Source of the DNA: an uncultured Candidatus Saccharibacteria bacterium
Lineage (GTDB): Bacteria > Patescibacteriota > Minisyncoccia > Phycocordibacterales > CSBR16-119
Length of the DNA stretch: 64,000 nucleotides
Assembly (NCBI GenBank): GCA_964589975.1
Contig: CAZPVH010000004.1
Location: forward strand, 10,469 to 74,468
Direction of reading: 5' to 3'
Shown here: positions 8,796 through 43,939 of the stretch, in pieces
Layout of the letters: each line of letters begins with the position of its first letter
Position numbering within the stretch: the first letter of the stretch is position 1
Notes under the pieces: model-generated
Told to the model about the DNA's origin: nothing
Databases searched by the model: none
Seen by the model: the letters and a program-made list of their open reading frames with translations, nothing else
Program-made: the position numbers and the translations under genes

Positions 8796-8926
8796 TGATG
8801 AATCCCGTTAGTGACCGCGGTCGCTAGCGAGAATTCGTTATCTGAATATGGAATTCTTACTTTATACAAATATTAGTACTATGGCAGTTTGCGGGACGAC
8901 CGCGACCTGTCACTAACGGGATGAAT
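8796..8926. repeat. MITE-like palindromic element (family 2) with about 24-bp terminal inverted repeats and GATGAAT/ATGAAT flanking direct repeat
   Basis: Left arm GAATCCCGTTAGTGACCGCGGTCG, right arm CGACCGCGACCTGTCACTAACGGGAT. The right arm ends at the ATG of the downstream helicase gene. Confidence 0.45.
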
Positions 8927-10954: not shown

Positions 10955-11773
10955 TTGATTAATAGAATGATTATGCGACCAAAGAAATCACTCGGGCAGA
11001 ATTTTTTGAAGAGCGGAAAAGCGCTCGGGGATATTGTTCGTGCGGGGGAGGTGAGTGCCGATGATGTGGTGCTAGAAATTGGTCCGGGGAAGGGAGCGCT
11101 GACGGAGAAACTCCTCGAAACCGGCGCGAAAGTTTTCGCCGTCGAAAAAGATCGTGATTTGATTCCACTTCTCACAGAAAAATTCGCTACATACATTGCT
11201 TCCGGAAAACTAACCCTCATCGAAGCCGACATCCTCGACTTCAATCCTTTAAGCTATAAGCTAAAAGCTAACAGCTATAAGCTCATGGGCAACATCCCGT
11301 ACTACATCACGGGCGCCATCATCCGAAAATTCTTGGAGTCCGATTATCAACCATCGCTTGCCGTTTTTCTAGTCCAAAAAGAAGTCACGGAGAGAATCGT
11401 CGCGCGTGATGGGAAGGAATCGATCTTGTCGCTCTCAGTCAAAGCTTACGGCGAGCCAAAACTCGTGGCCAAAGTCCCAAAAAGATACTTTACTCCGGAA
11501 CCGAAGGTCGATTCAGCCGTGCTTTTAATCGACAATATAAGTAAAAAGAATTTTCGAAATCTCAAGGAGGACGACTTTTTCTTCTTGGTTAAAGCAGCTT
11601 TCGGCCAAAAGAGGAAGACAATGCTAAAAAACCTTACCGGAGCCGGGATTTCCAGGGAAAATCTGGTATTTCAGGCCGAAAATATGGGGCTTGATCCGAA
11701 AATAAGGGCCGAAGACCTAACCATTCAGCAATTTCTGTCTTTAACGAAGGCTCTTTTCCCGAATAAACAGTAG
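10955..11773 (+). CDS. rsmA: 16S rRNA (adenine1518/1519-N6)-dimethyltransferase RsmA/KsgA
   Basis: LGQNFL motif, SAM-binding VLEIGPGKGALT, conserved KsgA C-terminal domain; TTG start. Confidence 0.85.
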   Translation: MINRMIMRPKKSLGQNFLKSGKALGDIVRAGEVSADDVVLEIGPGKGALTEKLLETGAKVFAVEKDRDLIPLLTEKFATYIASGKLTLIEADILDFNPLSYKLKANSYKLMGNIPYYITGAIIRKFLESDYQPSLAVFLVQKEVTERIVARDGKESILSLSVKAYGEPKLVAKVPKRYFTPEPKVDSAVLLIDNISKKNFRNLKEDDFFFLVKAAFGQKRKTMLKNLTGAGISRENLVFQAENMGLDPKIRAEDLTIQQFLSLTKALFPNKQ

Positions 11774-11803: not shown

Positions 11804-12163
11804 ATGAAAGCATTGCGCTATTTATTTTTAATTGTTTTGATTGCGGCCCCCTTATTAACGCTTGCTGCAGTTCTCAGGCCCTTTGGCGGACGCATAGCAA
11901 CAGCGCCTACGCCAGGAGTCTCATGTCCGGCCGGTAAACAGCCCGGCAGTCCTTTTACTGTATTGCCGGTGACACCAATGCCGCCATGGCTAATGGTCGG
12001 AGACTATCATCCCATCTCTACAAAATACCAGCTTGTTCCAAGTGCTTGGATTCTCGGTTTATATATACCTACTCCTATCCCAGAGTGCGCCTCCAACTCT
12101 CTCCCGCCAGTGCCTGTAAGTGGTTTTAGGACGTATATGCACGGAACTTCTGTTTCTTATTAA
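11804..12163 (+). CDS. small secreted Pro-rich protein (possible pilin-like T4SS subunit)
   Basis: 119 aa with a signal peptide, 2 Cys and a Pro-rich mature part; TGcTATGAT-N6-ATG leaderless-type promoter. Confidence 0.45.
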   Translation: MKALRYLFLIVLIAAPLLTLAAVLRPFGGRIATAPTPGVSCPAGKQPGSPFTVLPVTPMPPWLMVGDYHPISTKYQLVPSAWILGLYIPTPIPECASNSLPPVPVSGFRTYMHGTSVSY

Positions 12164-12173
12164 GCAATACAAT

Positions 12174-13079
12174 ATGAACTCAAAGTATCTTCCCAGCAGA
12201 AAATTTGTCATCTTCATCGGCTCAGCCATTCTTCTCGGCGTCCTGATTTGGGTTGGCTCGATGGTCCTCGGGAAGAGCGCGACATATACGAAAAAAGAAA
12301 AAGACAACTCTGTTGCCGGCTCTAGCGAATCAGAGAATTTTTACACCATGGACTCGGACAAAGACGATATCTATGACTGGGAAGAGGGGCTTTGGGGCAC
12401 GGACCCGAACAAAGCCGACACGGACGGCGACGGGGTAAGTGATGGCGAGGATATAAAAGAAAGGAAGGAGGCAATCCAAGATAGAAATGACATAGAAGGG
12501 GAAATAGCGCTTTCTGAAGATTTGAATCAAACAGAAATATTTGCCCGGCAGCTATTTTCAGCTGCATCGCTCGCCAATCAAAGTGGCGGGTTGTCGCCAG
12601 AGTCGCTTAACAACTTTTCTGAGTCGTTTGGTAAATCGATCTCTGGTGCCAGCATTGCTGATCTCTACCGTCCATCTGACCTGAAACTCGGCCAAGTATC
12701 GGCTGCAGAATACAAGAAAGACTTATCGATGATTTTCAAGCCGTACCTGGATTCTAAGTTGTCGACTGAAAGCGCAATATATCTAATGTCTACCGGCAAT
12801 GTTTCGGCAGAAACGGATATTGAAAAGCTTGCCGAGCTGCATCATGGCATCTCTAACTCGCTCGCCTCACTCGAAGTGCCTTTTGCTGTAGCTGGACCGC
12901 ATCTTGCGATGGCCAATAATTCGGCCAAGATCTCGCTCGCTCTTCTGAATCTGAAGAATTTGGAGCAGGATCCAATACTTGCCATGATCGGCCTGCGACA
13001 GTACTTCGAATATTCGACGGAATATGAGAAAGCTTTATCTGATCTCTCCGCATATTTCAAAGCTAATGGTATAATTTAA
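12174..13079 (+). CDS. membrane-anchored protein with thrombospondin-type-3-like Ca-binding Asp repeat
   Basis: N-terminal TM helix and a DPNKADTDGDGVSDGEDIKE motif. Start moved to the internal ATG (MNSKY); the ORF-track start at 12120 overlaps the upstream gene. Confidence 0.55.
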   Translation: MNSKYLPSRKFVIFIGSAILLGVLIWVGSMVLGKSATYTKKEKDNSVAGSSESENFYTMDSDKDDIYDWEEGLWGTDPNKADTDGDGVSDGEDIKERKEAIQDRNDIEGEIALSEDLNQTEIFARQLFSAASLANQSGGLSPESLNNFSESFGKSISGASIADLYRPSDLKLGQVSAAEYKKDLSMIFKPYLDSKLSTESAIYLMSTGNVSAETDIEKLAELHHGISNSLASLEVPFAVAGPHLAMANNSAKISLALLNLKNLEQDPILAMIGLRQYFEYSTEYEKALSDLSAYFKANGII

Positions 13080-15356
13080 ATGTTTTTTATGACTGGACGC
13101 AAAGCTCTGAAAATAATCCTCTCGCTTTTCCTTATAGCAACAATCATGGCGCCAAACGCCCTGCCTTTTTCCGCGAAGTATGCTGCGGCCCAAAGCGCAA
13201 ATGGGGAGCTAAGCGGTTCAGCTGGGACGGGCTTCAATGCTGGGGGAATAATCGCTTCGGCCATCTCGTGTTCTGGTCTCATGGATAAACTGGCTAGTGC
13301 GCTCTCAAGCCTTTTTTCGGTCACCGAAGTTCCGGTCGGCGACGCAGGACTCCGAACAAAGGAGAACTGCATGGACGCTATCGTCCATCAACTCGTAGTT
13401 ATGATCCTCGACAAGATTACGCTTGCGACTGTTGACTGGATTAATAGCGGTTTCGAGGGTCAGCCGCTATATCTTTCTGATCCTGAAGATTTTTTCACAA
13501 ATATTGCCCAGGATGAAATCAATCGTGTTACTGGTTGGTATGGTTGCACGACTGGAAATGTGAATTGCGGCGAAGACTATCCTTTCGGTCAGATTGTCAT
13601 GAGTAATATCATATCGACAATTCAAAGTCAGCTGGCAGCCAATGTCAGATTTTCACTAAACCAGGTTTTGGCTCACGGAACATACGAAGAATACAAGTTT
13701 GATTTCAATGTCGGTGGCTGGGCCGGGTATACAGCCATGCTTCAGCCTAACAACAACATTTTCGGCAACAATTTACTTATTAACAAAGAACTCGGTCGCA
13801 GGATTGGCGGTACATCAATGACTATCAGTCAGAATTTCAAAGCCCAGGTTACTGAGTCCGGAGGTTTTTTGAATCAGCGACGTTGTGTCCTTACCGCTAC
13901 AAACGATCCTGGCGACTACTATATTCCTAAAGACGACGAGATGCATGTTCCTCCTGGAGGACCAATTCCGCAGGCGGTTTACAATGCCGCCAATATGAAC
14001 GGCCCGTACGACGTGCCGACCGAGACGCAACAAGCAACCCTTACCGAGTACACTCTTCGGAGCGAATGCAAAGAGTGGCGCACGACAACTCCCGGAAACA
14101 TCGTCTCGAGCAAAATTACCAGCGCTCTTAACATTTCTGATAACAAATTGATCCAAGCCGATGAAATTTCCGAGAGCCTCGGCCTCATCTTTGACGCGCT
14201 CATCAACCAGCTTGTGAATACCGGCCTTGAATCCCTGAGCTCCTTCGCTTCGAGCGACGGAGGCGGCGGAGGACTCAACAGCGTCTTGGTGGCCCAGGTC
14301 AACGGCGAGCAGCCAGGACAAGTGACGAACGGACAGGCTCCACCTCCGGCTATTGATGCCATTACCGGTACAGGTTACTCGCAAGAGCCGCTACTTTTGG
14401 TACAGCAGCAGTATATCCAGCTTGCTCAACAGGCTGTTCCACAGCTTGATACCCTTATGAAGAAAATACGGGCGCTTGATTATTGTGTTCCTGGACCTCA
14501 TCCTTCTTGGCTTGACGAAGCAGAGGAAAATTTCCAGAACGTGCTTCTGTCCGTACAGCCGTTTGTTTCAAGTAATCCTGATTCCGGCGATGCTGAAGAA
14601 GAAAATCAGTCCTATTATGCCGCTGCCATTAATACCATTACCGGAATCAATATCTCTGAAAGTCCCGCGATGCATAACCATACGCAGTTCACGGCGTTTA
14701 TGAATAACGTCTTTAACAAGTACGCGGCCAGGATGCAGGATACTGCTAACATGGGCTACAGCAGGTTCTTGGCGCCGCCGGCGACTCGAGTTTTCTTGCA
14801 GAACCTGATGGATGAAATGGAAACCTACCAGACGACCTATGATAATTTGAATGAATATTTGACCAACATTACTTCATATATGCCGCAACTGATACAAATT
14901 GACGCTGCGCTCAACGATTTGGCTGATGGAAATGGAGGCGTCTTGGACGAAGATGATCCGCAGGTCCAGGCGCAAATCTCTTTGTTTAATAGTATTTCCG
15001 ATCACTTTGCCACAGAGGCTCAGCTCGACTACCTGGAGGTTAATTATGTTCTATATCAGAACCGTGAGACAACGGTTAATAGTCATATAAACAGTTGCTT
15101 GGCCGAAACGGTGAACGTTCCGTATCAGCCGGATCAACGAGTCATGTATCCGACTCCGATCCTGCCAACATACCAGCAGAACGATGGCGCCGAAATACCT
15201 ACTAACATGCCGAATTTCGATGACGCTTTCCTTCCGGGTGTTGATTTTACAGACAACACTAACGGTGGAGATATCGATGTCTCGTTCGAAAATGTTCAAA
15301 TTATTGGTTCTGAGCCTCTTACCATCTTTGAAACGGTTCTGCAATCAGTCTATTAA
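13080..15356 (+). CDS. large secreted hypothetical protein (758 aa)
   Basis: Signal peptide; Gly/Asn/Gln-rich; lies in the T4SS-like cluster. Alternative start at 13089. Confidence 0.6.
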   Translation: MFFMTGRKALKIILSLFLIATIMAPNALPFSAKYAAAQSANGELSGSAGTGFNAGGIIASAISCSGLMDKLASALSSLFSVTEVPVGDAGLRTKENCMDAIVHQLVVMILDKITLATVDWINSGFEGQPLYLSDPEDFFTNIAQDEINRVTGWYGCTTGNVNCGEDYPFGQIVMSNIISTIQSQLAANVRFSLNQVLAHGTYEEYKFDFNVGGWAGYTAMLQPNNNIFGNNLLINKELGRRIGGTSMTISQNFKAQVTESGGFLNQRRCVLTATNDPGDYYIPKDDEMHVPPGGPIPQAVYNAANMNGPYDVPTETQQATLTEYTLRSECKEWRTTTPGNIVSSKITSALNISDNKLIQADEISESLGLIFDALINQLVNTGLESLSSFASSDGGGGGLNSVLVAQVNGEQPGQVTNGQAPPPAIDAITGTGYSQEPLLLVQQQYIQLAQQAVPQLDTLMKKIRALDYCVPGPHPSWLDEAEENFQNVLLSVQPFVSSNPDSGDAEEENQSYYAAAINTITGINISESPAMHNHTQFTAFMNNVFNKYAARMQDTANMGYSRFLAPPATRVFLQNLMDEMETYQTTYDNLNEYLTNITSYMPQLIQIDAALNDLADGNGGVLDEDDPQVQAQISLFNSISDHFATEAQLDYLEVNYVLYQNRETTVNSHINSCLAETVNVPYQPDQRVMYPTPILPTYQQNDGAEIPTNMPNFDDAFLPGVDFTDNTNGGDIDVSFENVQIIGSEPLTIFETVLQSVY

Positions 15357-15448
15357 GGATAAAAGGTCGGATTTGCACACATTAGAGCCCCGGAAACGGG
15401 GCTCTGGTGCTATAATCTCCATATGCTTGCGCCTTTTGCGCACGATTA

Positions 15449-17788
15449 ATGAAAAAGAAATTCGGCATTGCCATAATGTTTTTTTCGATTGTTCTTGGAA
15501 CTGTTTTTGTTCCGGCTTTTTCAGCATATGCTCAGGCCAATGTCGACACATCTGACTACAACGACTATGAAGCAAGGCTTCAGGATTGCGGGGTTCTGGG
15601 AGATTCCAACCTGACAGCCTGTCTTGTCGAGGCTTTGTATTACTTGGTGCTGACGCCTTCGGCTTGGTTCGCCCGCGTGACTGGTGAACTGTTCGATTAT
15701 TTCGTCCAGTATTCCCTCGACACGAATTCATACCGTGGGAATGACAATTTTATTGAACGCGGTTGGTCTATAGTTCGTGATATTGGAAACGTCCTATTTA
15801 TCTTTGCTCTTCTTTATATTGCCATCACGCACATACTCCAAGCTGGTACGTCAGGGACAAAGAAATTTCTAATCAATCTCATCATTGCGGCGCTGCTGAT
15901 TAACTTCTCGCTCTTTTTCTCTCGCGTCATCATAGATGGTGGGAATGTTCTGGCTCGCGCGTTCTATAACAACATAGAGATCCCGAATGACGACAACCTG
16001 CAGTATCACACTATCTCCCAGGGAATCGTGATGCATGTTAATCCGCAGCGCCTGCTTGGCTCCGAACTTTTTACGCCAAAATATTCGAGTGATCCTGATG
16101 TGCCAGAAGGAAAAGTCGATAACGGGTATGCGGCACTAATTCTCGGTATGGCCACAGCAGTCAATATTGTCATGGGGATCACGTTTCTCTCTGTTGCGCT
16201 TCTCTTCGTTGGTCGCGTTGTGGGACTATGGTTCTTGATGATCTTCTCGCCGTTTGCGCTGGCTTCTATTGCTGTTCCAAATTCCGGCAAGATCTTTGGT
16301 CAGTTTAGCTGGAGCGGCTGGATCGATCAGATATTGAAGCTTTCATTCATGGCGCCGGTCTTCCTGTTTTTCCTCTTTCTCCTCATCATGTTCCTCCAAA
16401 TCATTTTCCAGACGAACGTATCTGACGCTGACAAGACGACAGTGCAGTGGATTCTCGATGTTGTCATACCATTTGTCATGGTCATATTTATTCTCAATAA
16501 GGCAAAGAAAGTCGCGGCAGACATGGCTGGGGAAGCGGGCAGCGCGGTCAAGAGCGCGGTTGGTTCTGCCGCAGGGTTTGCTGTCAGCACTGTGGGTCTC
16601 GGTATTGGGGCTACAGCATACATTGGCCGTAATACTGTCGGTAGGCTCGCATCTTCGTCGATAAAACGTCAACAGTTCCAAGAACGAGTTGCTTTGAATA
16701 ATATGAAAGCCAAGGAGTCTGAGCGAAAAGCTGAACAAGCTACGAACGAAAAAGAACGGTTGGCTCATATTCGTGACGCAGAAAAAGCTCGAGCAGCTGC
16801 GGTAAGAAATGCGATGGTTGTCAATCGAATGGATAAATTTAGAAAGGGTAGCTGGGATATCAGGAAGACCGACTGGATGAAGAAACAAGGAGGCCTGGCC
16901 GGAGTTGCTTATGATGTTGGCGCGAAAGCGGGTGGCTGGTCAAAGTCTCTGGCAGGGGAGTTATTTGATTCAAAGACTAAACTTGATATCGGTAAAGCCA
17001 AAGACACGAGTCGTTCGAAATACGAGGAGGATCAGAAAAAGAAGGATCTTGAAAAGGCAAAACTTTATGATGTGCAGGATCGAGGTGATCTTGAAATGAT
17101 CAAATACGAAGCGCGCAAAGGCTTGAATGGCAAGACGGAAGCTATAGAACGCATTGATGAATACATAGAAGAAACTACTAATTCCAAGAAGATTACAGAA
17201 ACGGAAAGAGAGAGACGGCTTAAAGATGCAGAGAATTGGAAGAAGGCGCTGGTCGCTGCTGTCACTGATAAGGATGTTATAGATGTTATATCGGGTAAAA
17301 AAGCTCAAGAAATTGATAATCCTGCATATCAAGATCTGAAAGAATCGCTGGAAGAGAAGCAGACTCGCAGAAATGAACTGCAGGCAATAAAAAAACGCGA
17401 AGGAAGACTCTTGCCTGAAGAGGAAAGGGAGTTGAATGGACTAGATGGAGAAATAGCGGCAACTAATTTGGAATTGAAGAAAACGAAACAAAAGATAGCT
17501 GACCCTGACAACCCTGGTTATTCTGGCGTTGAAGATCACGCGAAAACAATAGCGGGACAAGCAAGAGACGGCTACGCCACCATTGTTGAGAATAAAAATA
17601 TTACCAACGATATATTTAATCTTGGGGTAGGAAAGAGGGAAGCTGCGGCCAGGGCTGATGAAATAAGACGAGGCGTAAAGCCAGATGACTGGAAAGACAA
17701 GTTCAAGAAACTAGCAAAAGAGGTTGGAATGGATGAAAAACCAAAAGATGAACCAAAGTCTGATGATGGAGGAGGTGATAAAAAATAA
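15449..17788 (+). CDS. VirB6/TrbL-like polytopic membrane protein with long charged coiled-coil C-terminus
   Basis: Signal peptide, at least 5 TM helices in the middle third, a Gly/Ala-rich segment, then about 350 aa of K/E-rich coiled coil. Confidence 0.5.
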   Translation: MKKKFGIAIMFFSIVLGTVFVPAFSAYAQANVDTSDYNDYEARLQDCGVLGDSNLTACLVEALYYLVLTPSAWFARVTGELFDYFVQYSLDTNSYRGNDNFIERGWSIVRDIGNVLFIFALLYIAITHILQAGTSGTKKFLINLIIAALLINFSLFFSRVIIDGGNVLARAFYNNIEIPNDDNLQYHTISQGIVMHVNPQRLLGSELFTPKYSSDPDVPEGKVDNGYAALILGMATAVNIVMGITFLSVALLFVGRVVGLWFLMIFSPFALASIAVPNSGKIFGQFSWSGWIDQILKLSFMAPVFLFFLFLLIMFLQIIFQTNVSDADKTTVQWILDVVIPFVMVIFILNKAKKVAADMAGEAGSAVKSAVGSAAGFAVSTVGLGIGATAYIGRNTVGRLASSSIKRQQFQERVALNNMKAKESERKAEQATNEKERLAHIRDAEKARAAAVRNAMVVNRMDKFRKGSWDIRKTDWMKKQGGLAGVAYDVGAKAGGWSKSLAGELFDSKTKLDIGKAKDTSRSKYEEDQKKKDLEKAKLYDVQDRGDLEMIKYEARKGLNGKTEAIERIDEYIEETTNSKKITETERERRLKDAENWKKALVAAVTDKDVIDVISGKKAQEIDNPAYQDLKESLEEKQTRRNELQAIKKREGRLLPEEERELNGLDGEIAATNLELKKTKQKIADPDNPGYSGVEDHAKTIAGQARDGYATIVENKNITNDIFNLGVGKREAAARADEIRRGVKPDDWKDKFKKLAKEVGMDEKPKDEPKSDDGGGDKK

Positions 17789-17797
17789 AATAAGATC

Positions 17798-18466
17798 ATG
17801 ACGGTAACATCACCTGACAAGTTAATAGAAGAACATTTGGCATCCCTGCCTGAGCCTATTAAAAAGGCCATCGCTTCTTTCGACTGGGCGAGGGAGGTCT
17901 TCGATATTGGTCGAAAGCATAACATGCATATCGATCGCATTGGCGAGCTTCAAACTGAAGTCATGCTTGTCGTATTGGGACTCATTTCTCCTCGGGATTT
18001 CCAGACTGAACTAATGGAGCGAATCGAGCCTAATCACGATATTGCTATAGAAGTTTCTGACGAGGTGAATAAACGCGTCTTTATCCGGATCCGGGAATTC
18101 ATGAAAAAGTATTATGAGGACGACGGCACGCCAAAAGCTGTGGCGGAACCACCCGACGCCATAAAATCCGCCGAGAAAAAGGTGCTTAATGGCGCGGGAA
18201 TTCGGCTTGAGGGCGACCCTGAGCCTGAACCAGCGAAAATCACCATGGGTCCCGCGTCCATTTCGTCCGAAGAAGATGGAATCATCTCGCTTGGATCGTA
18301 TGATGACTCTGATTCGGCAGCGCCAACTCCGAAAATAGATCCGATCGTGCAGAAAGTCGCGCAGACGATGGAGAAACAGGAAGTCAGACCGTCGCCAATC
18401 ACTGTCATCAAGGCCGAGAATGCGCCAAAAGGTTTTTTGGATCCGTATAGAGAAGTTGTTGAGTAA
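17798..18466 (+). CDS. hypothetical cytoplasmic protein
   Basis: 222 aa, acidic, no recognisable motifs. Confidence 0.5.
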   Translation: MTVTSPDKLIEEHLASLPEPIKKAIASFDWAREVFDIGRKHNMHIDRIGELQTEVMLVVLGLISPRDFQTELMERIEPNHDIAIEVSDEVNKRVFIRIREFMKKYYEDDGTPKAVAEPPDAIKSAEKKVLNGAGIRLEGDPEPEPAKITMGPASISSEEDGIISLGSYDDSDSAAPTPKIDPIVQKVAQTMEKQEVRPSPITVIKAENAPKGFLDPYREVVE

Positions 18467-18916
18467 GTAGAAAGTAGTAAGTCGTAAGTCGCACGAACGA
18501 TGAACGAGCAAATAAAAAGAGGGCACAAGGATCTTGTAGTATGGCAAAAGGCCATGGACTTGGTCGAGGAAATTTATAAGTTGATTAAAGAGCTTCCAAA
18601 GGATGAGAAGTTTAATCTGGTTTCACAGATAAGCAGATCAGCTGTATCTATACCCTCAAATATTGCCGAAGGGTATAGAAGGGGGTCTGATAAATCATTC
18701 AAACAATTTTTATTAATTGCCTTCGGTTCAAGCGCCGAACTTGAAACTCAAATTGAGCTGGTCAAGAGACTGGTTTTAGCCCCCAATTTTGATTTTAAAG
18801 CAGTTGATAATCTCTTGTCTGACACCATGAGATTACTGAACGCTTTCATAAAGAAACTAGGTTGATCAAAGAGTTATCCGTGCTACTTACGACTTCCGAC
18901 TTCCAACTTACTGCGT
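18461..18916. repeat. IVS-like hairpin element: heptamer-repeat inverted repeats enclosing the four-helix-bundle gene
   Basis: Left arm GTAAGTAG-AAAGTAG-TAAGTCG-TAAGTCG-CACG (18461–18499). Right arm CGTGCTACTTACGACTTCCGACTTCCAACTTAC (18879–18916). The proximal stem pairs about 17 of 20 nt. Confidence 0.5.
18500..18865 (+). CDS. four-helix-bundle protein (23S rRNA intervening-sequence protein family)
   Basis: 121 aa; WQKAMDL...ELPKDEKFNLVSQISRSAVSIPSNIAEGYRRGS...ELETQIELVKRL matches the TIGR02436-type family. Confidence 0.8.
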   Translation: MNEQIKRGHKDLVVWQKAMDLVEEIYKLIKELPKDEKFNLVSQISRSAVSIPSNIAEGYRRGSDKSFKQFLLIAFGSSAELETQIELVKRLVLAPNFDFKAVDNLLSDTMRLLNAFIKKLG

Positions 18917-18928
18917 TATAATTAACTC

Positions 18929-19345
18929 ATGCGTTTCCAGGTTCCCCAATTCATCGACATCGAAGACAAGATCTTCGGACCGTTCACGTTCAAGCAGTTC
19001 GTCTATTTGGCGGGCGGCGCCGGCGCGTCTTACGCCATTTTCAAGCTTTTGCCTATCTACATCTCCGTTTTGCTTATCTTGCCGATCCTTGGAGTCGCCA
19101 TGGCACTTACTTTTTACAAAGTGAACGGCAAGCCGTTCATTGATATCCTCCAAGCCTGGTTCATATACACCTTCAAATCGAAGCTTTTCATCTGGAAGCA
19201 GCGCAAGGTCGAGAAAAAGAAAGAAGTTGTAGAAAAGAAGCCAGAAGCTCATCCAATGTCGAACATTCCAAAGCTTACGGAGTCGCGTCTCTCAGATATT
19301 TCTTGGAGCCTAGATGTCCTAGACATGCAGCAGAAGGATAAATAA
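18929..19345 (+). CDS. PrgI/VirB3-like small membrane protein of Gram-positive-type T4SS
   Basis: 138 aa; FQVPQFIDIEDKIFGPFTFKQFVYLAGGAG plus two TM helices, typical of the PrgI family; TATAAT-N6-ATG promoter. Confidence 0.6.
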   Translation: MRFQVPQFIDIEDKIFGPFTFKQFVYLAGGAGASYAIFKLLPIYISVLLILPILGVAMALTFYKVNGKPFIDILQAWFIYTFKSKLFIWKQRKVEKKKEVVEKKPEAHPMSNIPKLTESRLSDISWSLDVLDMQQKDK

Positions 19346-19351
19346 TTTTTT

Positions 19352-19996
19352 ATGGCACTTAATGCAAGAGCATCACAGCAGTTCGTTCCGATAAAAGAGA
19401 TCCAAGATGGGATCGTCGTTTTGAAAGACGGCGGTCTTCGGGCAATTCTCATGGCTTCTTCCATTAACCTTTCTCTAAAATCGGAGGATGAGCAAACTGC
19501 GACGATCATGCAGTTCCAAAATTTCTTGAATACGCTCGATTTTTCCATACAGATCTCGGTGCAGTCGAGGAAATTCAATATCACAAACTATGTAGCCCTG
19601 CTTGAGGGTCGGGTTAGGGAGCAGACCGAGCCGCTTCTAAAGATTCAAACTGAAGAATATATTAAATTCATTAAGGATTTTACCGAAACGACCAACATTA
19701 TGACCAAGCACTTTTTCTTGGTCATACCCCTAATGCCACTCAAAGGTGCTGACGGTGGTCTAATGGACAAAGTGCTGCCGGCGAATAAAACAATGACGCG
19801 CGCAGAGAAGGAAGAGGCTTTTAGCGAGGAGCGCTCACAACTTGAACAGCGTATTGCCGTTGTTGAACAGGGACTTTCTCGCATTGGCGTCCGAACTCTT
19901 CAGCTCAAAACGGAGGATGAGGTCGAATTGTTTTATCGCGTCTTCAATCCGGGCGACGCCGAAAGTCCGATTGATATAACTAATCAAGACAAATAA
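19352..19996 (+). CDS. VirB4/TrbE-family conjugal-transfer ATPase, N-terminal domain fragment
   Basis: IPIKEIQDGIVVLKDGGLRAILMASSINLSLKSEDEQ is the typical N-terminus of Gram-positive VirB4 (PrgJ/TcpF/Orf16-like). It ends at a TAA in frame with the next ORF. Confidence 0.6.
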   Translation: MALNARASQQFVPIKEIQDGIVVLKDGGLRAILMASSINLSLKSEDEQTATIMQFQNFLNTLDFSIQISVQSRKFNITNYVALLEGRVREQTEPLLKIQTEEYIKFIKDFTETTNIMTKHFFLVIPLMPLKGADGGLMDKVLPANKTMTRAEKEEAFSEERSQLEQRIAVVEQGLSRIGVRTLQLKTEDEVELFYRVFNPGDAESPIDITNQDK

Positions 19997-19999
19997 TTT

Positions 20000-22072
20000 A
20001 TGGGACTTCTAGATCTCCTCTCGGGGAAAAAACCAAAGAATCCGAAGAAAGAAATCCTGCCGGTATTGCCGGAAGAGATTTATCAGGCTGCGACTTTGGA
20101 GCTTCAGGATATTTTGGCGCCGTCGGCTCTTAAAATATCGCCGAAGGCCCTGAATCTCGGCGACAAAATCGCCCGAACGTATTTCGTCATTTCATACCCA
20201 AGGTTCCTATCAGACAATTGGTTCACTCCAATCATAAACCTCGACAAGATCTTCGATATTGCGATCCACATCCATCCCTTGGATACGAACACCATTCTCC
20301 GAAAATTTCAAAAGAAAGTGGCTGAGGTTCAGAGTCAGGTTAATGTTAGAGAATCAAAAGGCCTTGTGCGTGATCCGGTTCTCGATACGGCGTATCAGGA
20401 TCTTGAAGCTCTTCGTGACTCTTTGCAACAGGCTCAAGACAAGATGTTCGACGTTGGACTCTACATCACCATTTACGCGGATTCCATGCCGGAGCTTTCG
20501 AAGATTGAGAATGAAATCAAGTCGATCCTGGAAGCCAAGCTTGTCTATATCAAGCCAGCGCTATTTCAGCAGGATGTTGGTTTCAATAGCGTGGCGCCGC
20601 TTGCGACAGACTTCTTGGCTGTTCATCAGAAGATGAATACCGAGCCTCTTTCATCCATCTTTCCATTCGTCTCTTTCGATCTTTCGTCCGACAAGGGAAT
20701 TCTTTACGGCATAAATCGTCACAACTCTTCTCTGGTTATTTTCGACCGCTTTTCGCTCGAAAACTATAACTCGGTCACGTTTGCCAAGTCCGGTTCGGGT
20801 AAATCATATTCAACCAAACTAGAGATTCTCCGAACGCTCATGTTCGACGCGGAAGTCATCGTGATCGACCCCGAGAGGGAATACGAATATCTCTCTGAGG
20901 CCATTGGTGGCCGGTATTTCAATATTTCGCTCTCGTCCGAACACCACATCAACCCTTTTGATTTGCCTATTCCGACCGCCGATGAGACGCCGGAAGACGT
21001 TCTTCGCGCCAACACTATCCAGCTGGTTGGAATGTTTCGTATCATGCTCGGGGGCCTCACTCCGGAGGAAGACGCGATTATCGACAAGGCTGTGACAGAG
21101 ACCTACGCTCTAAAAGACATCACGTCAGATTCGGATTTTGCAAACATAGAGCCGCCTCTCCTTTCTGATTTCGAAATGGTTCTCGGTGGAATTGAAGGCT
21201 CAGACTCAATCATGACTCGGCTAGCCAAATACACGAAGGGTTCCTGGAAAAATTTCATTAACCAGCCGACAAACGTTGATATTAACAAGCGTTTTATCGT
21301 TTTCTCTGTTCGCGACATGGAAGACGATTTGAAGCCGGTTGCGATGTATATCGTCACGCACTTTATCTGGAACGCCGTCAGGAAGAATCTCAAAAAGCGC
21401 CTGCTTATCGTTGATGAGGCCTGGTGGATGATGAAGAGCGAAGATACTGCTTCCTTCCTTTACAGTATCGCCAAGCGAGGACGAAAATACTTCCTCGGCC
21501 TCTCAACCATCACTCAGGACGTGAATGACTTCGTGGAGAGCCAGTACGGCATGGCTATTGTCACGAACTCTTCGATGCAGCTACTCCTCAAGCAGTCCAC
21601 GAGCTCGGCCGACGCTCTCCAAAAAGTCTTTAACCTGACGGACGAGGAAAAATATCTCCTGCTCGAATCGGAAGTCGGCGAGGGCATCTTCTTTGCGGGC
21701 TTGAAGCATGTTGCCATAAAGGTCATTGCCTCATACACCGAAGATCAGATCATTACTTCGGACCCATCCCAGGTTTTGGCGATCAAGAAGGCTAAAGAGC
21801 AATTCCGAGAAGACGAAAAGGAGTTCGTGCGTACGGAAGGCGAACGTTTGGCAGGGGCCATGAATATTGAAGAAAGGCCAGAACCGACGTCATCTCCGGT
21901 CGAAGAATCGCCGACTAGACCCGCACAAGTTGTGGCTGAGCCAGAAAATCCAATTCCTCCCGCAAAGTCTACGGGGCCGAGGCCTCAGACAGAAACAGAG
22001 AATCTGGCCGAAGAGAGCGAGGGGCTGTCTGACGAGATTGATGATTTGGAGAAGATGTTTAAAGAATATTAG
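20000..22072 (+). CDS. virB4: VirB4/TrbE-family type IV secretion ATPase (ATPase domain)
   Basis: Walker A FAKSGSGKS, Walker B LLIVDEAWWMM, conserved VirB4 C-terminal motifs; acidic C-terminal tail. Confidence 0.85.
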   Translation: MGLLDLLSGKKPKNPKKEILPVLPEEIYQAATLELQDILAPSALKISPKALNLGDKIARTYFVISYPRFLSDNWFTPIINLDKIFDIAIHIHPLDTNTILRKFQKKVAEVQSQVNVRESKGLVRDPVLDTAYQDLEALRDSLQQAQDKMFDVGLYITIYADSMPELSKIENEIKSILEAKLVYIKPALFQQDVGFNSVAPLATDFLAVHQKMNTEPLSSIFPFVSFDLSSDKGILYGINRHNSSLVIFDRFSLENYNSVTFAKSGSGKSYSTKLEILRTLMFDAEVIVIDPEREYEYLSEAIGGRYFNISLSSEHHINPFDLPIPTADETPEDVLRANTIQLVGMFRIMLGGLTPEEDAIIDKAVTETYALKDITSDSDFANIEPPLLSDFEMVLGGIEGSDSIMTRLAKYTKGSWKNFINQPTNVDINKRFIVFSVRDMEDDLKPVAMYIVTHFIWNAVRKNLKKRLLIVDEAWWMMKSEDTASFLYSIAKRGRKYFLGLSTITQDVNDFVESQYGMAIVTNSSMQLLLKQSTSSADALQKVFNLTDEEKYLLLESEVGEGIFFAGLKHVAIKVIASYTEDQIITSDPSQVLAIKKAKEQFREDEKEFVRTEGERLAGAMNIEERPEPTSSPVEESPTRPAQVVAEPENPIPPAKSTGPRPQTETENLAEESEGLSDEIDDLEKMFKEY

Positions 22073-22075
22073 GAA

Positions 22076-22245
22076 GCTCCGCAGAATGCTTATTTAGGAA
22101 TCCTCCGAGATGCGCGCCCTCCATCCCTCGTAGCCCTCGGAATGGAGAAAACTGGCGCGCCCCCTCACGAAAAAGCTCCTAAAAGGGAGCTTTTTCTGCG
22201 GGTTCGTTCTCGGATTCCTAAATAAGCACTCTGCTCCGCGGAGAG
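22076..22245. repeat. MITE-like palindromic intergenic element (family 1, long copy)
   Basis: 21-bp TIR AGAATGCTTATTTAGGAATCC / GGATTCCTAAATAAGCACTCT with nested GC-rich hairpins. Internal CTGCGGGTTCGTTCTCGGATTCC is conserved with the copy at about 43.8 kb. Flanked by direct GCTCCGC on both sides. Confidence 0.5.
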
Positions 22246-22314
22246 CGGAGAGGTCTCAATAGTTTTCCTACTAGCAGCTTATAACTTCGGACTCGGTTTT
22301 GATATAATATTCCC

Positions 22315-22899
22315 ATGAATCAAGACAATACGGACCCGAAGACTATCAACTCTGATGACCAGAATACGATGGCTGATGCGGGCGTCGACATAACCGGCGG
22401 ATCGGGGGAGAATATTGCCGAAGGCGAGAAGGAACAGGCGTCGGAAGTCATGGATATTGATAGTTCGGCAGATGATGCTACGGCTGAAAAGGCCGGCATA
22501 AAGTTCGTCCAAACCGACAAAACTGATTTATCCGCGATGGCTGAGGCCAAGCAGAAAGCAGCATCTGACTCAAGGGCTCTAGAAGCTGAGTTTAAGGCGG
22601 AGTTTCCGGATTTCAAGGGTCCGCTTAAACCAGAATCAGAAAATGCTGTTATGGGTAAAGTAACTTCGCTCGGAACACTCCTTGCTAAAATTCAGGAAAA
22701 GCTTGGCTTAAAGAAGACATCGGTCCGGGAAGAGCTTGGAAGTCTCAAAAAGATGAAGGATGCTATCGGAAAAGACATTGAAGAGATCAAGGAGCTTGAG
22801 AGTTCAGAGCAAAAGATTAAAGAAGAGATTGGCAAAATTGAGTCCATTAGGAAAGAGGTAGAAGATATAGAAGAGAAGCTCGGAGAAGATTTGAAGTAG
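22315..22899 (+). CDS. acidic coiled-coil hypothetical protein
   Basis: 194 aa, very acidic; preceded by the same TGATATAAT-N6-ATGAAT module as the gene at 4612. Confidence 0.55.
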   Translation: MNQDNTDPKTINSDDQNTMADAGVDITGGSGENIAEGEKEQASEVMDIDSSADDATAEKAGIKFVQTDKTDLSAMAEAKQKAASDSRALEAEFKAEFPDFKGPLKPESENAVMGKVTSLGTLLAKIQEKLGLKKTSVREELGSLKKMKDAIGKDIEEIKELESSEQKIKEEIGKIESIRKEVEDIEEKLGEDLK

Positions 22900-22911
22900 C
22901 AGCTATTTAAA

Positions 22912-23892
22912 ATGACAAATCGGGACTTTTATAAAATATTTTTTGTTGCCGTTTTAGTTCTTTTGCCGTTCTTTTCTTACGCCCAGGTACAAGTTGGTCG
23001 TCGCATTACGCTCGTGGCTTCGCCTCAAAGCCCTGGACCTGGAGAGTCGGTTGTCATCACAGTTTCATCCTCTGAAATAAATATAGATCTTTCCAACATC
23101 GAGTGGTCGGTTGACGGTAAGTCGGCCCAAAAAGGCAAGGGGATGAGAAACTTTTCTTTTACCGCTCCTGGAAATGGAAAATCAAGCACCGTGAGTGTTA
23201 AGGTCTCGCCTCCGACCGGTACCACCGCGAACGAGTCAATAACATTCTCGCCGGCTGATATGGATATCATTTGGGAGGCTGAAAATGCATATACCCCTCC
23301 ATTTTATAAAGGAAAGACGCTACCCTTGAAACAGGGCCAAGTAAAGATAGTGGCAATTCCGAACGTTAGGAGTCAAAGTGGAAATATGATGAAACCATCG
23401 GAGTTTGCCTTCAGCTGGAAGAAAGACGGCCAAAATATGCAGGGCCAGTCTGGCTTCGGCAAGACTAGCTTCTCGTACATGAGTCAGCTTCTTGAAGAGA
23501 CCAATAGGATTGATGTCTTGGCTTCTAACGGCTTGAAACAGGTTGGCGGAGGAATCATTATTTCATATTTCGAGCCAGACTTCGTATTTTATGAAGTAGA
23601 TACATTGCTTGGACCCAAATACCAAAGTGCGCTTCGTGATGGTTTTCGTCCTGAAAAATCGCAGTTAACGCTTGTTGCGGAGCCTTATTTCTTGCCAGCG
23701 AATTGGCAAATAGACCCAGGAACTACTTTTGAGTGGAAAGTAAATAATCAAAAAGTGGGCCCGAAAACGAAGAATACATTGGCTGTAAATGCTGCCTCTC
23801 AGACTAGTAGCTTCAATGTGAGTGTTACATATAATGAGGCTAAGAAACTTTTTCGCAAATTCTCCGAGACAATCAGCATAAATCCTAAATAA
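22912..23892 (+). CDS. secreted hypothetical protein
   Basis: 326 aa with a signal peptide (LLPFFSYAQ). Confidence 0.55.
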   Translation: MTNRDFYKIFFVAVLVLLPFFSYAQVQVGRRITLVASPQSPGPGESVVITVSSSEINIDLSNIEWSVDGKSAQKGKGMRNFSFTAPGNGKSSTVSVKVSPPTGTTANESITFSPADMDIIWEAENAYTPPFYKGKTLPLKQGQVKIVAIPNVRSQSGNMMKPSEFAFSWKKDGQNMQGQSGFGKTSFSYMSQLLEETNRIDVLASNGLKQVGGGIIISYFEPDFVFYEVDTLLGPKYQSALRDGFRPEKSQLTLVAEPYFLPANWQIDPGTTFEWKVNNQKVGPKTKNTLAVNAASQTSSFNVSVTYNEAKKLFRKFSETISINPK

Positions 23893-23893
23893 T

Positions 23894-25393
23894 ATGAGCA
23901 GATCTGCATACAAAAAAATAATTACAGTCGCATTCTTTTTCACCATCGCGGTTGTTTTTATGCCGAGCAAGGCAGACGCAGCGTGTGCAGTTAGTAGTGT
24001 TGCAATGCGTCCGAATGGTGTTCAGCCGACTCAGACAGGCGACACAGATCCGCCAACTCCGGATGATTTTCCAGGACCTAACAATCCGTATAGGAATGAG
24101 AATACGGGTTACGGGAATGAGGGTTATAATGACGACAATCCAAACTTTCCACCGTTTGTGTATGCGGATGTTAGTACCTCTGGCTGTACAAATGATTCTT
24201 TAATTTTTTCGGTAAAGACTCACGTCGAGGCTACTGACGGCGTTGAGGCAGTCCTAGAAGAGATTGTTGTCGTAACGACAAATTCCGATTACGTGTATAT
24301 GCCTGGCCATACGGCCCACAGTAGCTCTTTTACAGTAGCTTACCGCGCGGGTGATCGTTACTGTACAGCTGAAGATTCGGTTTTTGATTGTCAGATATTT
24401 CTTGAGATAAAAAACTCCGATGGTCAACTTTTGTTTTCAAAAGGCACCGCTCAACAGCCAACTCTTTTGTATGAATGTGAATTACCCTGCGGACCCACCG
24501 GCGCAAATTGGCTTTTTGTCGGAGTTCAGGATTTTGGAGTCTCGCTCGACGCGCCGATGGGTGTTGATTTAGGAGACTTTGATTACTTCACTGAGGGGTA
24601 CGACCAGTATCTGGCTCCGTTACCAGGATTCACTGCAACGACCACATCAACCCTAGGCGGTTTTCTGAAAGGTCTTTTCACCGTCCTCGTCATGGTCGCC
24701 GGCATACTGGCATTTATTATGCTTGTGCTTGGTGGTATTACTTATGCGACCGCCGACGCGATCAGCGGGAAAACCAGTGGCAAGGAAATGATGCTAAATG
24801 CGGTCTTGGGACTCATTATCGCTCTTGGAGCATGGGTGATTCTAAACAGCATAAATCCGAACCTGGCTTCAAACCTCTCGATAACCATTCCGAAAGCGAA
24901 CTTCATTCCACGTTACGAGCCTGAAACCGGAGTTGGTGAAAACGTTGAGACGATCACTCTGAACCTTGTTGGCGGCGGCACCACAACCATGACAGCCTGC
25001 GACGAAACGAAAATTGTGCCCATAACAGCCTTTGGTAAGACTTTCCGAATACATCAGGGCCTTGTTACAAATATTCAGGCTGTCGAACAGCAGTGGCTTG
25101 CTATGCCAGAAGATCAGCGCTATAAGATAACCTCGATCGGCGGTTATAATTGTCGAAAGGTTAAAGGTACTCAAACATGGTCGAGTCATGCTTTCGGTAC
25201 TGCAGTTGATATAAATCCGAACAAAAATCCTTTTACCAGCGGACCATTGGTAACCGATATGCCGCCAAGCTTTGTTCAGCTCTGGACAAGTCATGGGTGG
25301 GGCTGGGGAGGAGGTTGGGATAGTGTGAAAGACGCTATGCACTTCAGTAAATATCCGACAGCCGAAGATGGAGACGCTACAATTTCACCATAA
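23894..25393 (+). CDS. membrane-anchored peptidoglycan hydrolase, peptidase M15 (VanY/L-Ala-D-Glu peptidase-like) domain
   Basis: Signal peptide, long central hydrophobic segment, C-terminal SSHAFGTAVDINPN...DAMHFS zinc-binding H-x6-D...H motifs; functional analogue of VirB1/PrgK/TcpG. Confidence 0.65.
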   Translation: MSRSAYKKIITVAFFFTIAVVFMPSKADAACAVSSVAMRPNGVQPTQTGDTDPPTPDDFPGPNNPYRNENTGYGNEGYNDDNPNFPPFVYADVSTSGCTNDSLIFSVKTHVEATDGVEAVLEEIVVVTTNSDYVYMPGHTAHSSSFTVAYRAGDRYCTAEDSVFDCQIFLEIKNSDGQLLFSKGTAQQPTLLYECELPCGPTGANWLFVGVQDFGVSLDAPMGVDLGDFDYFTEGYDQYLAPLPGFTATTTSTLGGFLKGLFTVLVMVAGILAFIMLVLGGITYATADAISGKTSGKEMMLNAVLGLIIALGAWVILNSINPNLASNLSITIPKANFIPRYEPETGVGENVETITLNLVGGGTTTMTACDETKIVPITAFGKTFRIHQGLVTNIQAVEQQWLAMPEDQRYKITSIGGYNCRKVKGTQTWSSHAFGTAVDINPNKNPFTSGPLVTDMPPSFVQLWTSHGWGWGGGWDSVKDAMHFSKYPTAEDGDATISP

Positions 25394-27031
25394 TTGTTTA
25401 TGAGAAACTCAAAAGCATTCAAAATTCTAGCTTTCATCGCGCTCTTCCTCCTCATTATCTTTTCTTGGATTCTCTGGAAAGACGCGCAGGAAAAGAAAAT
25501 TCGCGAGACGCCTCGCAATTCCGGTATCGAGGACCCGTTTGGGGCAGGGGCGGTGGATACAGAGCTCCCAAGCTCCGGCAGCGCTAATCAAGGTACGGGT
25601 ACTACCGGCGGCCAGGATATTCCTGTCTCAAATCCGGTTCCTGATCAGTCGGTAACGGTCGTCGAAGATAGTCCTGCTCTCAGGCAGATTTCTGACAAGC
25701 CGGTTGCCGGCGCTACATTTGTCGTAGAAGAGCGAATAATTCCGGAAGAAGAGAGCGCAACGCCTGCCACAGGACTTATTGAGGTTTATGATTTCTCGGG
25801 GTATAAGACTATCCGTTTTGGTGACAAGGCTGATGAAATTATTGCCATCAAGACCGTACTCAATCGTCAAACGCCTTCGCCGGGACTTACAATAAACAAT
25901 GATTACGATACCGACATGAAGAACGCGACTGTCGATTTTCAGAATAGGTCTGGGTTGCCGGGAGATGGTGTGATTGGCCCGAAGACTTATCAGAAGCTCA
26001 ATTTGCTTCAGGGTATTACCGCTTTTACTTCCACAAAAAAGCCGGCTAACAAGGAATTTGTTCTGATGGCTCGGTTCGTCGATTCCGTAAGCGGCACAGT
26101 TCACGATAGAGCGGTTAGGAAAATGGAAGAAGAGAAAGCCGTGACGAAAACGAGCGTGCCGCGCGTAGTAGAAGCATTCTTTGATTCGACCGGCACAAAT
26201 ATCATCATGCGCTATCTCAAAGATAATATTATCGAAACATATCTCGCTAAACTTACTTTTCCAAAGATTGATCCAAACCTGACTCAAGAAGAGAAGGATA
26301 AGGTGTCTAAAGCCGCTCAAGTTTCCGGAGAGTTTCTTCCGGAAAACATCGAGACGGTTTCCATCTCGCGCGACAAGAAAAGCTTTTTCTATCTGAACCC
26401 TGTGGCGGGCGGTGTGGCCGGTATCACTTATAATTTTGCGACCAAAGCGAAGAAGCAAATTTTTGAAAGCCCTCTTTCAGAGTGGCTGGCTGATTGGGGA
26501 AGCGATGGAAAGATTTCTCTTACTACAAAGGCTTCAGGCTTAGTTCCAGGGTACTCGTATACTATAGATTCAAAGGTCGGTACCATGGCTAGACTTATCG
26601 GCGGCGAAAAAGGCCTGATGACACTTCTCTCGCCTGATGGTAAAAAACTACTTTACTCGACATTTGTGAACTCAAGTATTGAGACATTTATTTATGACCT
26701 TGCCGCTGGAAAATCAACAGGTATATCTCCGGCGGCGCTGCCAGAGAAGTGTGTATGGTCCAAGGATTCTAAAAATGTTTACTGCCTTGCGCCGATCAAG
26801 GCTATGTCCGGAAACATGCCTGACGATTGGTATAAGGGCAAGGTAACGTTTGACGATGCGCTCTGGGTCACGGATCTCATAAACTATAACGGCAACATTA
26901 TCTATGATTTCAAGGCGAAGTCCGGCCAAGGAATCGATGCTGTAAATCCAGTCATGAATGCAACGGAAGATTACATTCTATTCAAGAATAGGAAAGACGG
27001 GACGCTTTGGGGGTACGACTTGAATAAGTGA
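25394..27031 (+). CDS. membrane-anchored protein with peptidoglycan-binding domain and TolB-like beta-propeller region
   Basis: N-terminal TM helix; PG_binding_1-like motif DFQNRSGLPGDGVIGPKTYQKL; SPDGKKLLYS-type propeller repeats. Confidence 0.55.
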   Translation: MFMRNSKAFKILAFIALFLLIIFSWILWKDAQEKKIRETPRNSGIEDPFGAGAVDTELPSSGSANQGTGTTGGQDIPVSNPVPDQSVTVVEDSPALRQISDKPVAGATFVVEERIIPEEESATPATGLIEVYDFSGYKTIRFGDKADEIIAIKTVLNRQTPSPGLTINNDYDTDMKNATVDFQNRSGLPGDGVIGPKTYQKLNLLQGITAFTSTKKPANKEFVLMARFVDSVSGTVHDRAVRKMEEEKAVTKTSVPRVVEAFFDSTGTNIIMRYLKDNIIETYLAKLTFPKIDPNLTQEEKDKVSKAAQVSGEFLPENIETVSISRDKKSFFYLNPVAGGVAGITYNFATKAKKQIFESPLSEWLADWGSDGKISLTTKASGLVPGYSYTIDSKVGTMARLIGGEKGLMTLLSPDGKKLLYSTFVNSSIETFIYDLAAGKSTGISPAALPEKCVWSKDSKNVYCLAPIKAMSGNMPDDWYKGKVTFDDALWVTDLINYNGNIIYDFKAKSGQGIDAVNPVMNATEDYILFKNRKDGTLWGYDLNK

Positions 27032-43930: not shown

Positions 43931-43939
43931 GGGGGGAGA

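Follow-up and report, generated by a model that had tools for sequence, protein, structure and literature searches.

Gene content of the cluster

The window analysed here is a 64,000-nucleotide (nt) stretch of contig CAZPVH010000004.1 from an uncultured Patescibacteria bacterium, and the subject of this study is a gene cluster at positions 11804-27031 that resembles a type IV secretion system (T4SS). This cluster forms a single, uninterrupted block on the forward strand. Upstream it is flanked by uvrD (8921-10858) and ksgA (10955-11773), and downstream by clpP, tig and nusA, which lie in the opposite orientation; all open reading frames (ORFs) of the cluster were intact. The features are listed in Table 1, together with the number of related species loci in which each family was found.

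Table 1. Features of the T4SS-like cluster and its surroundings (aa, amino acids; TM, transmembrane; PG, peptidoglycan; Ig, immunoglobulin)
Feature	Position	Strand	Basis or properties	Related loci
Small secreted protein, 119 aa	11804-12163	+	signal peptide, one N-terminal hydrophobic segment	1/80
N-terminally anchored acidic protein, 301 aa	12174-13079	+	net charge -19	31/80
Large secreted acidic protein, 758 aa	13080-15356	+	net charge -52; Paceibacteria-specific family	39/50 with enough upstream DNA
Extended VirB6/TrbL-like polytopic membrane protein (putative)	15449-17788	+	TrbL match of homologues, topology	68/80
Cytosolic acidic protein, 222 aa	17798-18466	+	N-terminal helical-looking domain, variable linker, C-terminal motif	69/80
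23S_rRNA_IVP/bAvd-like four-helix-bundle gene	18500-18865	+	PF05635	12/80
PrgI/VirB3-like small membrane protein	18929-19345	+	PF12666	76/80
TrsD-like protein, 214 aa	19352-19996	+	VirB4 N-terminal domain as separate polypeptide	79/80
VirB4-family ATPase	20000-22072	+	body after split-off N-terminal domain; acidic, variable C-terminal extension	80/80
GC-rich palindromic/structured element, 183 nt	22076-22258	.	242-bp gap between virB4 and next gene	
Acidic Glu/Lys-rich protein, 194 aa	22315-22899	+	no signal peptide, no TM segment	2/80
Three-Ig protein	22912-23892	+	N-terminal TM anchor, three tandem Ig-like beta-sandwich domains	79/80
Modular envelope protein, 499 aa	23894-25393	+	signal peptide, ectodomain, pilin TM hairpin, M15_4	71/80 (pilin module)
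PG-binding protein	25394-27031	+	N-terminal anchor, PG_binding_1, conserved C-terminal domain	74/80
Giant surface protein	30755-33727	+	DUF11 and SdrD_B	
Giant surface protein	34144-36468	+	no domain	
Giant surface protein	36619-39861	+	Gly_rich_2	
Protein with Por_Secre_tail-like C-terminus	42698-43711	-	sub-threshold; near giant surface proteins	
Second copy of structured element, 176 nt	43766-43941	.	~80% identical to first copy	

The VirB4-family ATPase matched P-loop_TraG (92.6 bits) and AAA_10 in Pfam, and its best curated model was the CD1110-type VirB4 of NCBIfam (380 bits, cutoff 325), aligned over profile positions 183-733. In the PDB it matched the VirB4 C-terminal domain 4AG5 (2.4e-48) and TrwK (2e-05). 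Both Walker motifs, A (AKSGSGKS) and B (LLIVDEAW), were intact and were invariant in relatives. The TrsD-like protein encoded immediately upstream matched TrsD in NCBIfam (4.1e-07) and the N-terminal parts of three VirB4 models, among them CD1110 VirB4 (positions 2-115, 2.5e-07) and VirB4_plasma (positions 102-233, 6.8e-10), and five of its orthologues weakly matched TraC_F_IV. Because the TrsD-like protein covers CD1110 positions 2-115 and the adjacent VirB4 ORF matches only from position 183, VirB4 is split into two polypeptides at this locus. A survey of Patescibacteria genomes assigned this TrsD/TrsE split arrangement to the pGO1 subclass (Quinonero-Coronel et al., 2025; PMC12102498). No signal was obtained when the TrsD-like family was aligned by hhalign with the N-terminus of its own VirB4 or with PrgJ, using alignments of low diversity, and a PDB profile search with the family gave no match.

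The PrgI gene lies two genes upstream of virB4. Its product matched PF12666 (5.1e-11; 43.4 bits, cutoff 27), has a hydrophobic segment at residues 40-58 and is expected to be the VirB3/PrgI-type membrane partner of VirB4. In the polytopic protein at 15449-17788, a signal peptide and about six TM segments are followed by a hydrophilic tail of 415 aa, 39% of it charged, a layout that agrees with the "extended VirB6" type of a recent review. Neither this protein nor any of 33 orthologues matched Pfam directly; its homologues P0183, P0185, P0186 and P0219 (E 3e-13 to 4e-32) passed the gathering score of TrbL (PF04610), with matches spanning nearly the whole profile. A first PDB profile search gave no match, and hhalign against PrgH was not significant (probability 1.7%). 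In the PDB, the best match of the broadened family profile was TrwI, which is the VirB6 of R388 (7o3v_F, E 0.0018). By transitivity through these homologues, the protein is a putative VirB6/TrbL-type channel protein.

The modular protein at 23894-25393 consists of an ectodomain (about residues 30-250), a VirB2-like TM hairpin (251-318) and an M15_4 peptidase (425-485; 62 bits in Pfam). The peptidase takes the VirB1/PrgK role by analogy and is not homologous to VirB1. Of the parts by which a T4SS is recognised, a VirB4 ATPase, PrgI/VirB3, a putative VirB6/TrbL-type protein and a cell-wall hydrolase were found together in the cluster. The next protein, at 25394-27031, matched PG_binding_1 (PF01471, 29.2 bits, cutoff 23) and has a TM segment at residues 9-27; the top PDB match of its family profile was weak (TolB, 7mx5, E 0.013), and its C-terminal domain may be a TolB-like beta-propeller.

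An AlphaFold2 model of the 22912-23892 protein (pLDDT 92.7) contained three Ig-like domains. The protein was therefore rejected as a VirB8/TcpC-like candidate, and hhalign against PrgL and Tn916 Orf13 was also negative. As modelled, it is likely a wall-spanning scaffold or adhesin.

The upstream part of the cluster is variable. The 758-aa secreted protein at 13080-15356 is a candidate distal or host-contact component. The anchored protein at 12174-13079, whose family is about 27% identical among loci, has a TM segment at residues 11-29 and thrombospondin-type-3-like Ca-binding repeats (TSP3_bac, 0.004, sub-threshold; CglD repeat region, 3e-05). The cytosolic protein at 17798-18466 lacks a TM segment and matched neither a known family nor a PDB entry. 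It is poorly conserved outside a C-terminal D-P-Y-R motif, in which D215 and Y217 were invariant and P216 and R218 were present in at least 90% of the aligned sequences, and it may be an adaptor or assembly factor. The motif resembles a short docking peptide. The protein at 11804-12163 had no match in Pfam, NCBIfam or PHROGs, and that at 22315-22899 had a weak, sub-threshold match to Bacillus_HBL (0.009). Since they were found in one locus (L001, 60% identity by tblastn) and two loci, respectively, neither is a conserved part of the machine.

An earlier note, made by reading this DNA without database searches, had named the PrgI/VirB3-like protein, VirB4, the VirB6/TrbL-like protein and a membrane-anchored M15 cell-wall hydrolase, and the matches above bear out all four, the VirB6/TrbL-like one indirectly through its homologues. 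It had described the 25394 product as a PG-binding beta-propeller protein; the PG-binding part holds, and the propeller has the weak TolB match in its favour. Six proteins had been put forward as novel components. The 12174, 13080, 17798 and 22912 families proved to be conserved members of the cluster, and 11804 and 22315 turned out to be lineage-specific; the comparison of 22912 with VirB8/TcpC that had been suggested came out negative. The TrsD-like protein had been overlooked, as had the 23S_rRNA_IVP gene, which does not belong to the T4SS.

Conservation among related loci

One genome per GTDB species was scanned with VirB4, which gave more than 500 confirmed loci, and the best 80 were used for comparison. 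Presence was counted by tblastn and family hidden Markov models (HMMs). VirB4 identity in these 80 species loci was 68-89%, and nearly all were titled as metagenome-assembled genomes (MAGs) of Paceibacteria, Nomurabacteria, Kaiserbacteria, Campbellbacteria or generic Patescibacteria. The CD1110 model belongs to a Firmicutes family, and together with the taxonomy of the closest loci this agrees with the earlier view of a Gram-positive-style T4SS-like cluster in a genome of the candidate phyla radiation.

The recurring gene order was uvrD, ksgA, the 12174 family, the 13080 family, the VirB6-like gene and the 17798 family, followed by PrgI, the TrsD-like gene, VirB4, the three-Ig protein, the pilin-hairpin protein and the PG-binding protein. 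In this comparison across relatives, of the kind proposed in the earlier note, the order was kept in up to 80 species loci, and its recurrence excludes chance. ksgA was found in 33 of the 80 loci, many of which stop short of that upstream position. Median identity was 76% for VirB4, 56% for the TrsD-like family, 77% for clpP and 80% for nusA, the last two from the few loci that include them. ksgA and uvrD were near 50%, and the exposed cluster proteins were at 27-33%.

Genomic context

The domain scan covered 24 window ORFs of at least 245 aa, leaving aside one antisense ORF and two genes of the ribosomal-protein operon. Among the scanned ORFs no relaxase, VirD4-type ATPase, integrase or transposase domain was found, in agreement with the earlier note, and the library scans gave no type IV coupling protein (T4CP) domain. 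P-loop NTPase family matches in the cluster region were limited to VirB4 and UvrD; a loose Walker A pattern also fitted three other proteins of the region, all of them envelope proteins. No tRNA was found in the window, no GC anomaly across the cluster, no direct-repeat boundaries around it, and no long repeats in the window except one small element (22076-22258/43766-43941). A promoter and terminator scan gave counts no higher than shuffled controls.

The sequence beyond the window was also housekeeping in character. The left flank (~4 kb) holds genes for PNPase, a further IVP protein and a DksA-like protein, and the right flank (~6 kb), which continues from the ribosomal-protein/SecY operon of the window, encodes EF-P and TruB amid small unannotated genes. 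No relaxase, coupling protein, integrase or tRNA was present among the called genes of these flanks. The earlier note had named a relaxase, T4CP and oriT immediately outside the window as a finding that would overturn its reading. Neither the scanned ORFs of the window nor the called genes of the flanks include the relaxase, VirD4/TcpA coupling ATPase or integration module of a conjugative element.

The best VirB4 match is to an ICE-type model, and PrgI and TrsD are conjugation-plasmid families, as would be the case in an ordinary integrated conjugative element (ICE), or the decayed remnant of one, whose relaxase, coupling protein and integrase lay outside the ~74 kb of the genome that the examined sequence covers. 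However, the cluster sits with intact ORFs between ksgA and clpP-tig-nusA and has no integration signature (integrase, att repeats, tRNA, compositional shift or patchy distribution). Dozens of species have the same gene order next to uvrD-ksgA, VirB4 has diverged in step with the housekeeping genes, and relaxases occur in only 103 of 3,035 Patescibacteria genomes (PMC12102498). An ICE is therefore disfavoured by the housekeeping flanks and the conserved synteny, and we consider it very improbable. The cluster belongs to the core of the chromosome and is not an integrated conjugative element.

Relation to described systems

In the survey of Quinonero-Coronel et al. (2025; PMC12102498), VirB4 was found in 2,417 of 3,035 genomes, and most of these proteins fell into a single clade within MPF_FATA. 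The partner seen most often was TrsD; genes for PrgI, VirB6 and VirB2-like proteins were close by, ksgA counted among the frequent neighbours, and few relaxases occurred. The present locus shares with these systems a chromosomal location, an MPF_FATA-related VirB4, TrsD at position -1 with PrgI at -2, an upstream gene for a VirB6-like protein, a VirB2-like pilin domain in the vicinity, ksgA as a neighbour, and the lack of a relaxase or nearby T4CP; there is no difference in kind. TrsD, PrgI and a VirB2-like pilin domain encoded beside a chromosomal virB4 are the marks of the Patescibacteria T4SS.

In Southlakia epibionticum, Wang et al. (2023; PMC10633639) described what appears to be a T4SS (SEML1_0006-0019); it is essential for growth as an epibiont and has predicted pilins, without recognisable coupling or relaxase proteins. 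No T4SS before it had been shown to be essential for its carrier organism, and S. epibionticum is the only species for which this has been shown. By the supplementary tables of that study, the S. epibionticum ML1 locus (SEML1_0004-0019) and ours have in common the backbone order of a VirB6-like protein, PrgI, a short unknown protein at the TrsD position, VirB4, and one or more hydrolases followed by an exported Ig-like protein, and both are without a coupling protein and relaxase. Saccharimonadia differ in having six pilin genes that stand alone on the opposite strand, lysozyme-type hydrolases as separate proteins, two giant VirB6-like proteins and an NTF2-like protein. No NTF2-like protein was detected at our locus, where a single pilin module is fused to an M15 peptidase and the upstream secreted proteins are its own. 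The system class was published in 2023-2025, a 2025 review counts the Patescibacteria systems as newcomers to the T4SS superfamily, and the present locus adds nothing categorically new. The non-conjugative reading given in the earlier note agrees with the published view and, being already in the literature (PMC10633639, PMC12102498), is not new.

The conjugative T4SS of monoderms (Trs of pGO1/pSK41 with TrsC-TrsD-TrsE, Prg/Pcf of pCF10, Tn916/CTn2) belong to MPF_FATA and share with the cluster PrgI/VirB3, the split of TrsD and VirB4, a VirB4 of the CD1110 type, a polytopic protein resembling VirB6 and a PG hydrolase dedicated to the system. In contrast to them, the locus is without PcfC/VirD4, a relaxase, accessory factors, a PrgL/TcpC-type VirB8-like protein and LPXTG adhesins. 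Comparison of the locus proteins with PrgH, PrgL and Tn916 Orf13 by hhalign was not significant. The hydrolase is of the M15 type here and SLT plus CHAP in the monoderm systems, and a VirB2-like module is present here, whereas Gram-positive systems are otherwise without it. The effector or toxin systems Bordetella Ptl and Brucella VirB and the DNA-uptake systems Helicobacter pylori ComB and archaeal Ced work without a coupling ATPase or relaxase and provide a precedent for non-conjugative use. All of these except Ced are diderm systems with VirB7/9/10 outer-membrane cores, and no specific homology to the locus was found beyond VirB4.

Taken together, the data suggest that the cluster is a vertically inherited chromosomal T4SS of Patescibacteria, here of Paceibacteria (Parcubacteria), derived from monoderm MPF_FATA systems and without DNA-processing partners, which we hold with a probability of roughly 0.88. 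Four points weigh against this. The putative placement in the Patescibacteria VirB4 clade rests on proxies, namely the best VirB4 model (CD1110/MPF_FATA) and the taxonomy of the nearest homologues, which are Patescibacteria MAGs. By published statistics, a VirD4-like gene is likely to be present elsewhere in the genome. No VirB8-like (NTF2-fold) bitopic protein of the PrgL/TraM/TcpC kind was found, the best positional candidate, 22912, having been modelled. Finally, the functional reading would be carried over by analogy from a different class, Saccharimonadia, and a 2024 perspective called the role of Patescibacteria T4SS completely unknown.

The pilin-hairpin and hydrolase protein

The modular protein at 23894-25393 combines a signal peptide with a two-helix hydrophobic hairpin (TM segments 261-279 and 299-317), as is required of a VirB2/TrbC protein. 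Its own match to the Pfam T4SS_pilin profile was 26.1 bits, just below the cutoff of 26.6; among the orthologues in the same slot, 48 of 55 matched T4SS_pilin (PF18895, E up to 0.001) and 4 matched TrbC/VirB2 (PF04956). With a 230-aa ectodomain before the hairpin and a 180-aa enzyme part after it, the protein is not a small, stand-alone pilus-packing subunit. A search of 1.84 billion representative proteins with the 95-aa pilin module gave 12,360 matches at E <=1e-3, and 137 of the best 150 were at least 200 aa long. A few of the best matches held 3-14 tandem modules. Public proteins such as P0448 (1775 aa), P0378 (1382 aa) and P0370 (1147 aa) carried 9-14 tandem T4SS_pilin/TrbC modules in one ORF, which in P0448 scored 302 bits over 11 stretches; either they are true polyproteins made of many pilins, or arrays of pilin genes were called as one gene by read-through.

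In the related loci, the pilin-module HMM found one gene in 66 and two in 5. A C-terminal extension of at least 80 aa was present in 62 of the 77 pilin-module proteins, and the extensions fell into 25 unrelated sequence clusters. Those that could be recognised were all PG enzymes: NlpC/P60 (9), VanY (8), YkuD (4), Amidase_5 (3), M15_4 (2), SLT (2), SLT_2 (2) and 3D (1). The two closest relatives, with VirB4 88-89% identical, had the same N-terminal ectodomain and NlpC/P60 in place of M15, and the M15 domain was shared only with locus L027.

In the text of PMC12102498, "fused" and "fusion" are used for VirB3-VirB4 only. Neither the embedded pilin module with its swapped hydrolase nor the universal three-Ig, 17798 and 13080 families were found in that text or in the other papers searched, and the PG-binding protein was likewise not found in that text; its supplementary tables or further papers may cover them. 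The variable pilin-hydrolase fusion is the one part of the cluster that may so far be undescribed.

The two ends of the pilin point outward from the filament in F- and T-type pili. Decorated pilin subunits are therefore geometrically conceivable, and the Paceibacteria VirB2-like pilin might be a carrier that displays interchangeable wall enzymes (M15, VanY, NlpC/P60, YkuD, SLT) and Ig-like ectodomains, a proposal that we regard as doubtful. Such display could take place on a T4SS-assembled filament or at the secretion site, which is a similarly speculative step. It is equally a long shot that the whole would be a wall-drilling device for feeding or injection, with the enzyme swapped to suit the wall chemistry of the host.

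Inserts and neighbouring genes

Two features within the cluster stand apart from the T4SS genes. The gene at 18500-18865 matched PF05635 (6.7e-37) and the PHROG "Avd protein of DGR" (6.8e-08). It was absent from the two closest relatives, and where it did occur among the 80 loci it lay at three different intergenic slots of the operon, a pattern suggesting that a small mobile or selfish gene has inserted more than once. Its presence in the operon is sporadic, and it does not belong to the T4SS components. A role in a diversity-generating retroelement (DGR) was rejected, as no reverse transcriptase domain was found among the scanned ORFs and no template/variable repeat pair in the window. IVP genes are scattered in the genome, and a further copy lies just upstream of the window (L082 3746-4108).

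The structured element between virB4 and the next gene has a second copy downstream. Both copies were predicted to fold into a closing stem of about 22 bp and a three-way junction with two hairpins, with minimum free energies of -93.7 (183 nt) and -89.9 kcal/mol (176 nt) and z-scores of -7.7 and -5.5. The folding energies predict the same fold and do not set the strand. Where the closing stem differs between the copies, the changes are compensatory; both copies carry the 17-mer CTGCGGGTTCGTTCTCG without change, and the copy beside virB4 (copy A) holds a terminator-like hairpin. There was no Rfam family match, a covariance model found no further copy in 1.5 Mb of related loci, and a metagenome scan with the 17-mer gave chance matches only. 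The element is either a palindromic repeat resembling miniature inverted-repeat transposable elements (MITEs) or repetitive extragenic palindromic (REP) sequences, or an undescribed small RNA.

Upstream of uvrD, a forward-strand ORF at 4612-8775 encodes a 1387-aa Lys/Glu-rich protein without a Pfam match or a clear TM segment, with two Gly-rich hydrophobic stretches. Downstream of nusA lies a run of giant, very acidic surface proteins with signal peptides, which are likely adhesins or envelope proteins. None has a homologue in the related T4SS loci, except for a partial match to the 34144 product in L001. The Por_Secre_tail-like C-terminus encoded at 42698-43711 is unexpected for a monoderm.

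Possible function

The chromosomal T4SS proposed above would assemble at contact with the host cell and move macromolecules across the envelope without DNA conjugation; it would either export effectors or take in material from the host. Hexamers of VirB4, docked on VirB3 and VirB6, would power assembly and transport through the membrane, and the tethered hydrolase would cut the PG open locally. The Ig-like and PG-binding proteins may scaffold the wall-spanning part in place of the missing VirB8-like proteins, and the fast-evolving secreted proteins 12174 and 13080 would face the host. A conserved motor combined with fast-diversifying exposed parts, including the exchange of enzyme modules, fits a host-interface apparatus.

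The direction of transport bears on a ComB/Ced-like uptake machine, which would feed host DNA, RNA or other macromolecules to a cell auxotrophic for nucleotides and amino acids and would not be an exporter. The locus has no coupling protein or relaxase for export of a substrate, and uptake has been proposed for Saccharibacteria on the grounds that comEC is dispensable and the T4SS essential. A 2026 preprint ties VirB4 of Minisyncoccota to the transfer of macromolecules in a parasite that feeds on RNA, and it describes tubular structures directed toward the host. VirB4 also matched CedB weakly and in part (1.4e-06), but this match (27.3 bits, cutoff 700) covered the P-loop core only, which does not make the protein a CedB or ComB4. 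No ComB- or Ced-specific partner was found, nor any nuclease or nucleic-acid-binding domain in the cluster. We regard uptake as a possible, if somewhat unlikely, function; it is compatible with the T4SS reading, which fixes no direction of transport.

Most conserved genes outside the motor code for envelope proteins whose folds are of the adhesion or PG-binding kind, wall enzymes are fused to the pilin module, and there is no coupling protein, all of which would suit an apparatus for attachment and cell-wall remodelling only, in which VirB4 assembles a pilus or anchor with hydrolase and Ig-like adhesion modules and no channel is formed. A VirB6-like channel protein is nevertheless present in 68 of the 80 loci, and type IV pili already serve Patescibacteria for adhesion, so that we consider this explanation improbable.

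A non-conjugative T4SS thus remains our preferred reading, and the locus is a clean Paceibacteria example of it, with a conserved set of about 10 gene families. The parts that can be tested are the split VirB4, the universal three-Ig protein, the cytosolic protein with the DPYR motif and the enzyme-swapping pilin-hairpin protein, whose enzyme is exchanged even between genomes whose VirB4 proteins are 88-89% identical. If the type of enzyme tracks the type of host wall, it could serve as a predictor of hosts for uncultured Paceibacteria.

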